The translations under genes and the position numbers were made by a program. DNA of 4,878 bases from a virus (Duplodnaviria; Heunggongvirae; Uroviricota; Caudoviricetes), in the IMG/VR virus record IMGVR_UViG_2529292907_000020, positions 1 through 4,878 of that record, one strand, 5' to 3'. Positions 1,068-1,364 of this stretch are shown here, piece by piece; within the stretch, counting starts at the first letter, position 1; every line of letters begins with the position of its first letter. The notes beneath the pieces were generated by a model. The model was not told the DNA's origin. It searched no databases and saw only the letters and a program-made list of their open reading frames with translations.

Positions 1068-1090
1068 AAAAAGAGACCGAACACGATTCC
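1068..1090 (-). ncRNA. sdsR: 23-bp 3'-terminal segment of sRNA SdsR/RyeB (terminator loop, 3' half-stem and U-tail) lacking the upstream half of the terminator stem; interpreted as an att-core copy at an island junction, not a complete sRNA gene
   Basis: Minus-strand read ACAGGAATCGTGTTCGGTCTCTTTTT (1093..1068) matches my recollection of the SdsR 3' end; the complementary 5' half-stem (CCGAACAC-type) is absent upstream, where the sequence is ...GTTGTAA; the locus is next to pphA, where ryeA/ryeB normally lie. Confidence 0.4.
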
Positions 1091-1364
1091 TGTTTACAAC
1101 GCAAAACGAAATAACTTCTAAACTTCAACAAGTTAACACCAAAAACCCACTAAATAACACCTCCTGATACTTACTATTGCAATCATTGAAGATCAATCAG
1201 TTGCCATTGGTTTCGTGGCGCCGTCGGGAAATCTTCGGGATCAAAACTCCAGGACAGAAATTTCTATGGCACGCCATTACGCATGCCATCTGTAATGTGA
1301 AAAATCAGGTGGCAGAGCTAATGCAACCAATATGATTGCTCGCGCCCCATTCCATCAAAGGTTC

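Follow-up and report, generated by a model that had tools for sequence, protein, structure and literature searches.

The DNA analysed here (the window) is 4,878 nucleotides long and matches, at 100% identity, the end of contig AIFW01000026.1 (GCA_000249615.2), which stops one base past it. Its left part is chromosomal and consists of yebW, encoding a DUF1482 protein (1-276, plus strand; Pfam PF07358, E 3e-35) and syntenic with K-12, followed by an intact pphA, encoding a serine/threonine phosphatase (277-936, minus strand; Pfam Metallophos). At 1066-1093, on the minus strand, lies a short segment corresponding to the 3' end of the small RNA gene sdsR (ryeB), which is contiguous with 1093 bp of yebW-pphA synteny and which we interpret below as the core of a phage attachment site. 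The initial annotation had described everything to the right of this junction as phage or IS-derived, and this description held, as the sequence right of 1093 consists of phage, IS or intron DNA.

The first foreign segment (1094-1364) is non-coding and has the character of the P-type arm of a phage attP at the tail end of the prophage, with conserved blocks at 1169-1239. It is followed by three phage genes on the minus strand, namely a tail-fibre assembly gene (1365-1697; PHROG 136, E 7e-30; Pfam Caudo_TAP), a tail-fibre gene for a protein of 357 aa (1673-2746; PHROG 11303, E 9e-76), and the 3' part of a wedge gene of the baseplate (2749-3193; DUF2612/Phage_Wedge1, PF11041, E 5e-27), which an IS cuts short, the fragment covering positions 70-180 of the 181 in the PF11041 profile. 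The tail-fibre assembly reading frame is short. Counted from its first ATG it has 110 aa, gene calls in related loci give 103 aa, and it matches just the N-terminal ~100 of 178 PHROG 136 positions; its homologues in strains GZ2408P and 1506 measure 137-143 aa. Either a C-terminal truncation or a short version of the gene may be present.

The wedge gene is interrupted by the left part of an IS3-family, IS629-like element on the plus strand (3194-3986; Rfam ALIL; Pfam HTH_Tnp_1 and HTH_21). It comprises orfA (3246-3572), the 5' part of orfB (3569-3986) and, across their overlap, the ALIL pseudoknot of the -1 frameshift signal (3527-3643; Rfam ALIL, 121.5 bits), with a terminal inverted repeat at the insertion point; the right end of the element lies beyond the window. 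Inserted in orfB is the 5' part of a group II intron (3987-4878, plus strand), with an ltrA reading frame from 4657, whose matches are annotated as "ltrA: group II intron reverse transcriptase/maturase" at 99.5-99.9% identity. Both boundaries are visible in comparison with other loci, since IS-free loci stop matching at 3193 and a locus with the IS but without the intron (L006) stops at 3986. The insertion of the IS3-family element in the wedge gene cripples the prophage of the source strain. The IS-intron composite recurs in many E. coli chromosomes and plasmids at 99.5-99.9% identity, and at least 80% of it is held by 1353 genomes.

The sdsR 3' end fragment beside pphA

The plus strand at 1068-1093 reads AAAAAGAGACCGAACACGATTCCTGT, and its reverse complement, ACAGGAATCGTGTTCGGTCTCTTTTT, matches exactly the final 26 positions of K-12 SdsR_RyeB as defined by Rfam (1694-1669 of the K-12 reference stretch, L001). 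In that stretch Rfam places SdsR_RyeB at 1768-1669 on the minus strand, with a covariance-model score of 114 bits, and SraC_RyeA at 1665-1809 on the plus strand. The core pattern occurs a single time in the window and in 0 of 200 shuffled sequences. Chance similarity of the core to sdsR was considered and rejected.

Read on the minus strand, the fragment contains the SdsR U-run (1066-1073), the 3' half-stem of the terminator (1074-1084), its 7-nt loop (1085-1091; GATTCCT / AGGAATC) and the last two nucleotides of the 5' half-stem (1092-1093); foreign sequence takes the place of the remaining 9 nt of this 11-nt half-stem. The K-12 sdsR terminator has an 11-bp stem and folds at -17.5 kcal/mol, while the window copy folds at -7.4 kcal/mol (z -0.07) and the terminator hairpin is absent. 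The Rfam search proposed in the initial annotation gave zero matches in the window for either SdsR (RF00111) or RyeA (RF00101), even at E<=10. The initial annotation had noted the SdsR loop, 3' half-stem and U-run on the minus strand, and these agree with the K-12 SdsR 3' end; its further statements, that the terminator cannot form for want of the 5' half-stem and that the fragment is not a complete sRNA, are supported by the 2 of 11 nt that are left, by the fold without a hairpin and by the missing SdsR model match.

The mature 3' end of SdsR has been placed at +100 to +102 (PMC6610125), which corresponds to window positions 1071-1069, so that 23-25 nt of the mature RNA are kept in the window and the "23 bp" given in the initial annotation agrees with its 26-bp coordinates. 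In lysogens with both copies visible, the core copies share 28 bp of uninterrupted identity (window 1066-1093), with one C/T difference at 1082.

We then compared the junction with complete E. coli genomes. Window positions 900-1093 were matched in 5426 of 5426 genomes, with pphA annotated beneath the match in all of them, and in almost every sampled row the match stopped at 1093. Positions 937-1093 are identical to the K-12 pphA-sdsR spacer, and the sequence from 1094 rightward is unrelated to K-12. The stretch 900-1400 as a whole was carried by none of the 5426 genomes. Nor did the 40-nt junction have an exact match in a collection of species representatives, which contains a single genome for each species and so could not include a junction specific to one strain. 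The initial annotation had set the start of horizontally acquired DNA at this point, and no island-free genome was found with 1091-1364 beside pphA, homology being lost at 1093/1094.

With the K-12 stretch as query, pphA-sdsR-yebY was unbroken in 5191 of the 5426 complete genomes (~96%) and split in the remaining 235. Where the locus is split, the piece on the yebY side begins at position 1668 of the K-12 stretch (L001) and the piece on the pphA side ends at 1694, so the two overlap by ~27 bp, which is the duplicated core. A four-way alignment of the window, both ends of the prophage of strain 1506, and K-12 displayed the classic attR/attL/attB pattern. The sdsR terminator is thus a hot spot of genome plasticity in E. 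coli, occupied in ~4% of complete genomes. One E. coli interruption of the pphA-yebY interval, at NZ_CM128592.1 1038155-1039532 (H63), is an IS1A insertion and not a prophage.

Related prophages and their integrases

The tail-fibre gene of the window was found on at least 24 contigs. In nine of the ten loci listed it is followed by the tail-fibre assembly gene, an identical core junction and pphA; the tenth (L010) ends just beyond the core, before pphA. Three of these loci (L004, L005 and L007) carry unbroken prophage sequence upstream, with sheath, tube, baseplate J and wedge genes resembling those of phages E217 and phiTE, and the uninterrupted wedge gene is present in L005 and L007. L008 and L010 also have E217/phiTE-like tail genes as far as the loci reach. 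L006 is 100% identical to window positions 1-3986; its IS, inserted at the same point, is simple and complete, and baseplate and tail genes are kept upstream of it. At >=90% identity the tail-fibre module was in no complete RefSeq E. coli genome. The exact window prophage is also present in GCA_024755885.1 and CM127657.1.

The initial annotation had predicted that the other end of the island would carry a second core copy and intact sdsR. The source contig ends at the window edge; the predicted layout was seen directly in two relatives, GZ2408P and 1506, with the second core copy inside intact sdsR and int with xis at the other junction. Strain GZ2408P carries a 42-kb prophage between yebY and pphA that is 93.9% identical to the window prophage over the tail region. 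Its order is yebY, SdsR/RyeA, int, xis, DUF4060, RecT, RecE, replication, lysis, terminase, head, tail, tail fibre, tail-fibre assembly, core and pphA. Rfam scored RyeA at 177 bits and SdsR at 116 bits in this locus (L025), the intact SdsR lying at 3002-3101, and exactly two direct copies of the core are present, at 3076-3101 and 45200-45225. Strain 1506 harbors a degraded relative with the same layout and ends, in which an IS1 has inserted and the head genes, most tail genes and the early/replication region are gone; its core-adjacent arm is ~87% identical to window 1094-1242. The prophages are mosaic, the att arm and tail-fibre module of GZ2408P being strongly diverged from those of the window despite the 94% identity of the tail region.

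Strains 1506 and GZ2408P have integrases that share 98.9% identity and a lambda-type architecture (PF09003, Arm-DNA-bind; PF22022; PF00589). An int gene was located at the far junction in GZ2408P, 1506, L014, L016-L020, L026, L027, L030 and L032. Five integrase representatives (P0001, P0002, P0005, P0007 and P0008), at 88-99% identity, adjoin yebY with the core between wherever the locus extends past int; none of these loci comes from GCA_024755885.1 or CM127657.1. We assume that the integrase of the window prophage belongs to this GZ2408P/1506 clade.

A second integrase clade, 49% identical to the first, uses the same sdsR site and belongs to lambdoid prophages of the STEC type (for instance in CFSAN027346 and RMDEC465). 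Like the GZ2408P prophage, these have int and xis next to sdsR-yebY, and a core variant, AAAAAAAGACCGAATACGATTCCTGT, forms the sdsR 3' end; they differ in the integrase and in the phage backbone. The second-clade integrase genes lie at 2795-4030 in L026 and 2794-4030 in L027, and the sdsR 3' end that this clade supplies is slightly different (…GGTCTTTTTTTAATT).

Among phage-collection genomes, the closest integrase was that of the Flyfo siphovirus Tbat2_3, a circular complete genome, at 78% identity to the GZ2408P enzyme. Downstream of its int are three tandem arm-like repeats and then a core-like sequence, AAAAAAAGACCGAATACCAATCCTGT, which matches 23 of the 26 core positions (0 of 200 shuffles). 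The arm past this core aligns with window 1094-1245 through short conserved blocks, which within window 1169-1239 read ACTTAC-A-T and TTTCG..CG.CGGGA....TTCG.G and are common to the window, GZ2408P (L025, about 45055-45125) and the free-phage attP (L028, about 3765-3835). From their sequence these blocks are probably arm-type Int, Xis or IHF sites. The int-side arms also contain three tandem copies of a TTTCGNG-like motif. The Tbat2_3 core between int and arm is an attP, from a relative and not from the same phage, and the window contains the core of that attP together with one arm. A DNA search of the phage collection with core plus arm returned nothing but a Salmonella prophage record that matches over 35 bp at the core. 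Since tail genes abut the window junction and int abuts the other, the window junction is, in lambda terms, attR (P-O-B').

Proposed strand exchange in the sdsR terminator

Position 1082 distinguishes the two ends of the prophages. K-12 and all pphA-side copies (12 loci) have C here, and all 13 int-side copies (L003 and L014-L025) have T, as does the Tbat2_3 attP. Within sdsR, the T allele was found in 57 of 5405 E. coli genomes, C being the E. coli norm. The asymmetry between the sides, together with the rarity of T, indicates that T is phage-borne and that the crossover took place within 1083-1093, and therefore that the intact sdsR of lysogens has a 3' half-stem and U-run supplied by the phage. 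The crossover interval contains the terminator loop, which in attB is flanked by the inverted half-stems. We propose that the 7-nt loop (1085-1091) is the 7-bp overlap region of strand exchange; the half-stems around it would have the geometry expected of core-type sites with a 7-bp overlap. The T allele converts a U-G wobble in the SdsR terminator into a U-A pair, and the sdsR terminator of GZ2408P folds at -25.4 kcal/mol, with a slightly longer fragment folded.

With the break point, the core duplication, the adjacent integrase and the free-phage attP all observed, we conclude that 1066-1093 is very probably the core of a hybrid att site, left by a temperate contractile-tailed phage that integrated in the Rho-independent terminator of sdsR. 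The tail module of the phage resembles that of phiTE/E217, its integrase is presumably a lambda-type tyrosine enzyme, and the phage itself is uncharacterised. The window junction is of the attR type at the tail-gene end, and consists of pphA-side DNA, the core and a P arm (1094 to ~1245, up to 1364). In the proposed mechanism the integrase would recognise the sdsR terminator, with the half-stems serving as inverted core-type sites and the 7-nt loop as the overlap. After exchange, the yebY side would hold a complete sdsR in which the last 15 or more nt (3' half-stem and U-run) derive from the phage, and the pphA side would be left with the chromosomal 3' half-stem, loop and U-run only, which is the orphan copy in the window.

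Several other explanations have to be weighed against this one. One accepts the same integration and holds that the prophage of the source strain has since decayed, so that its core no longer recombines; the IS and intron insertions would be part of this decay, and int, xis or the far junction may have been lost as well. The wedge gene is indeed broken by an IS3-family element, into which a group II intron has in turn inserted, and the prophage of strain 1506 demonstrates, with its IS1 and gene losses, that decay of this kind takes place at the sdsR site. On the other hand, L006, which is 100% identical to 1-3986, retains the baseplate and tail genes upstream of its simple IS, and a defect in a structural gene does not block excision by Int and Xis. 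We regard decay to a non-recombining remnant as a possible but not the probable state of this prophage.

The remaining two explanations dispense with site-specific integration or with the loss of function, and we consider both very improbable. As a single junction is visible in the window, sdsR might have been cut by illegitimate recombination or deletion, its break at the loop being a coincidence. However, the same break point recurs in independent prophages with different arms (the window, 1506, GZ2408P and the STEC lambdoid prophages), two directly repeated copies of the core are present, the core also lies inside the attP of a free phage, and integrases of the clade adjoin the site wherever flanks are available. 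It is just as hard to see the fragment as a functional truncated sRNA, or as a terminator for pphA or for the phage late genes. It does keep the U-run and one half-stem and shares its strand with the tail genes and pphA, but the weak fold contains no hairpin, the SdsR model found no match at E<=10, the SdsR promoter, seed region and first hairpin are missing from the sequence, and a terminator scan predicted none at the position of the core.

Known insertions at sdsR and possible consequences for lysogens

Integration at the 3' end of sdsR is already known, and it is the specific prophage that is uncharacterised. The ryeB 3' end has been published as an insertion hot spot in Salmonella in papers citing the original work (PMC7380047, PMC3333887, PMC3603311), which bear out the statement in the initial annotation that the last 23 bp of ryeB serve there as a phage attachment site. 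According to PMC7380047 (citing Balbontin et al. 2008, J Bacteriol 190:4075), phage PhiW104 attaches within these 23 bp. The sdsR locus has been called a recurrent att site (PMC3333887), and "RyeB" is used as the target name of prophage Cfr111.52.RyeB (PMC10111431). The Salmonella hot spot resembles the present locus in its position within the last ~23 bp of ryeB/sdsR, internal to ryeA, in its pphA-yebY neighbourhood, in the duplicated core and in the parting of the ryeA 5' part from sdsR. Here, in contrast, the host is E. coli, the block of identity is 28 bp rather than 23, and the prophage is an uncharacterised, phiTE/E217-like contractile-tailed one.

The arrangement also invites comparison with lambda attR. 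In both, int and xis lie opposite the tail genes, the tail-end arm is long and has conserved blocks, the int-side arm resembles P'1-3 in its three tandem repeats, and a candidate 7-nt overlap lies between inverted half-sites. The clade integrase, however, is only ~40% identical to integrases of the HK022/lambda type, the protein-binding sites and the overlap proposed here are putative, and attB is the terminator hairpin of an sRNA instead of gal-bio intergenic DNA. The site can also be compared with integration at tRNA and tmRNA 3' ends (Williams 2002, as cited in PMC3603311), where the target is likewise a hairpin-containing small-RNA 3' end, phage DNA replaces the lost 3' end so that the gene stays complete, and the other end bears a partial orphan copy. 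It differs from these in that sdsR is a regulatory sRNA overlapped by an antisense gene, which means that integration cannot spare both, and ryeA loses its promoter and first 64 nt. The locus illustrates how the terminator hairpin of an sRNA serves a phage integrase as attB. In genome annotation, a 26-nt SdsR 3' fragment next to pphA can be taken as a reliable sign of a prophage boundary, and where such an orphan is found, intact sdsR is to be expected next to an integrase on the yebY side.

The initial annotation missed two features of the junction, namely that the ryeA promoter and RyeA nt 1-64 are kept beside pphA and that pphA is cut off from the sdsR promoter. The extended -10 element of ryeA, TGtTATGGT (1014-1022, plus strand), is identical to K-12. 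A published ryeA promoter mutation used a primer that replaces TATGGT (PMC6610125), and this -10 box corresponds to window 1017-1022, with the upstream TG at 1014-1015. The same work equates RyeA +10 with sdsR +132 (PMC6610125), which puts RyeA +1 at position 1631 of the K-12 stretch (L001), or about window 1030. RyeA/SraC nt +1 to about +64 therefore occupy 1030-1093 on the plus strand, with K-12 identity up to 1093, where they are fused to phage DNA. The full RyeA (~270 nt to its own terminator) is absent from the window, which has just the promoter and nt 1-64. On the yebY side of the lysogens the RyeA Rfam match runs only from about nt 35 onward, and an intact ryeA gene is therefore not demonstrated there.

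[quoted passage not shown] For Salmonella, PMC7380047 (citing Balbontin 2008) reports that PhiW104 lysogeny lowered ryeA expression and raised that of ryeB. From this arrangement we infer that SdsR would lose its native antisense partner and pphA its read-through from the sdsR promoter. It is tempting to speculate that integration amounts to a lysogenic conversion, with a chimeric ryeA transcript, more SdsR and a pphA detached from the sdsR promoter, although we put this forward tentatively and as less than probable. Were it true, the sigma-70 ryeA promoter would drive a chimeric transcript that crosses the att core and enters the phage arm, SdsR, freed of its cis-antisense antagonist and endowed with a terminator improved by the phage, would be more abundant, and lysogens and non-lysogens would differ in SdsR-dependent stationary-phase regulation and in PphA levels. 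This likely rewiring of E. coli lysogens, with pphA off the sdsR promoter and ryeA reading into the phage, would be the unpublished part of the story.

A promoter and terminator scan of 900-1450 gave background-level matches only and missed the experimentally defined ryeA promoter; within its range, no plus-strand terminator was predicted up to 1450. In the window, the ryeA promoter and RyeA nt 1-64 point towards the phage arm and run antisense to the genes for tail-fibre assembly and the tail fibre.
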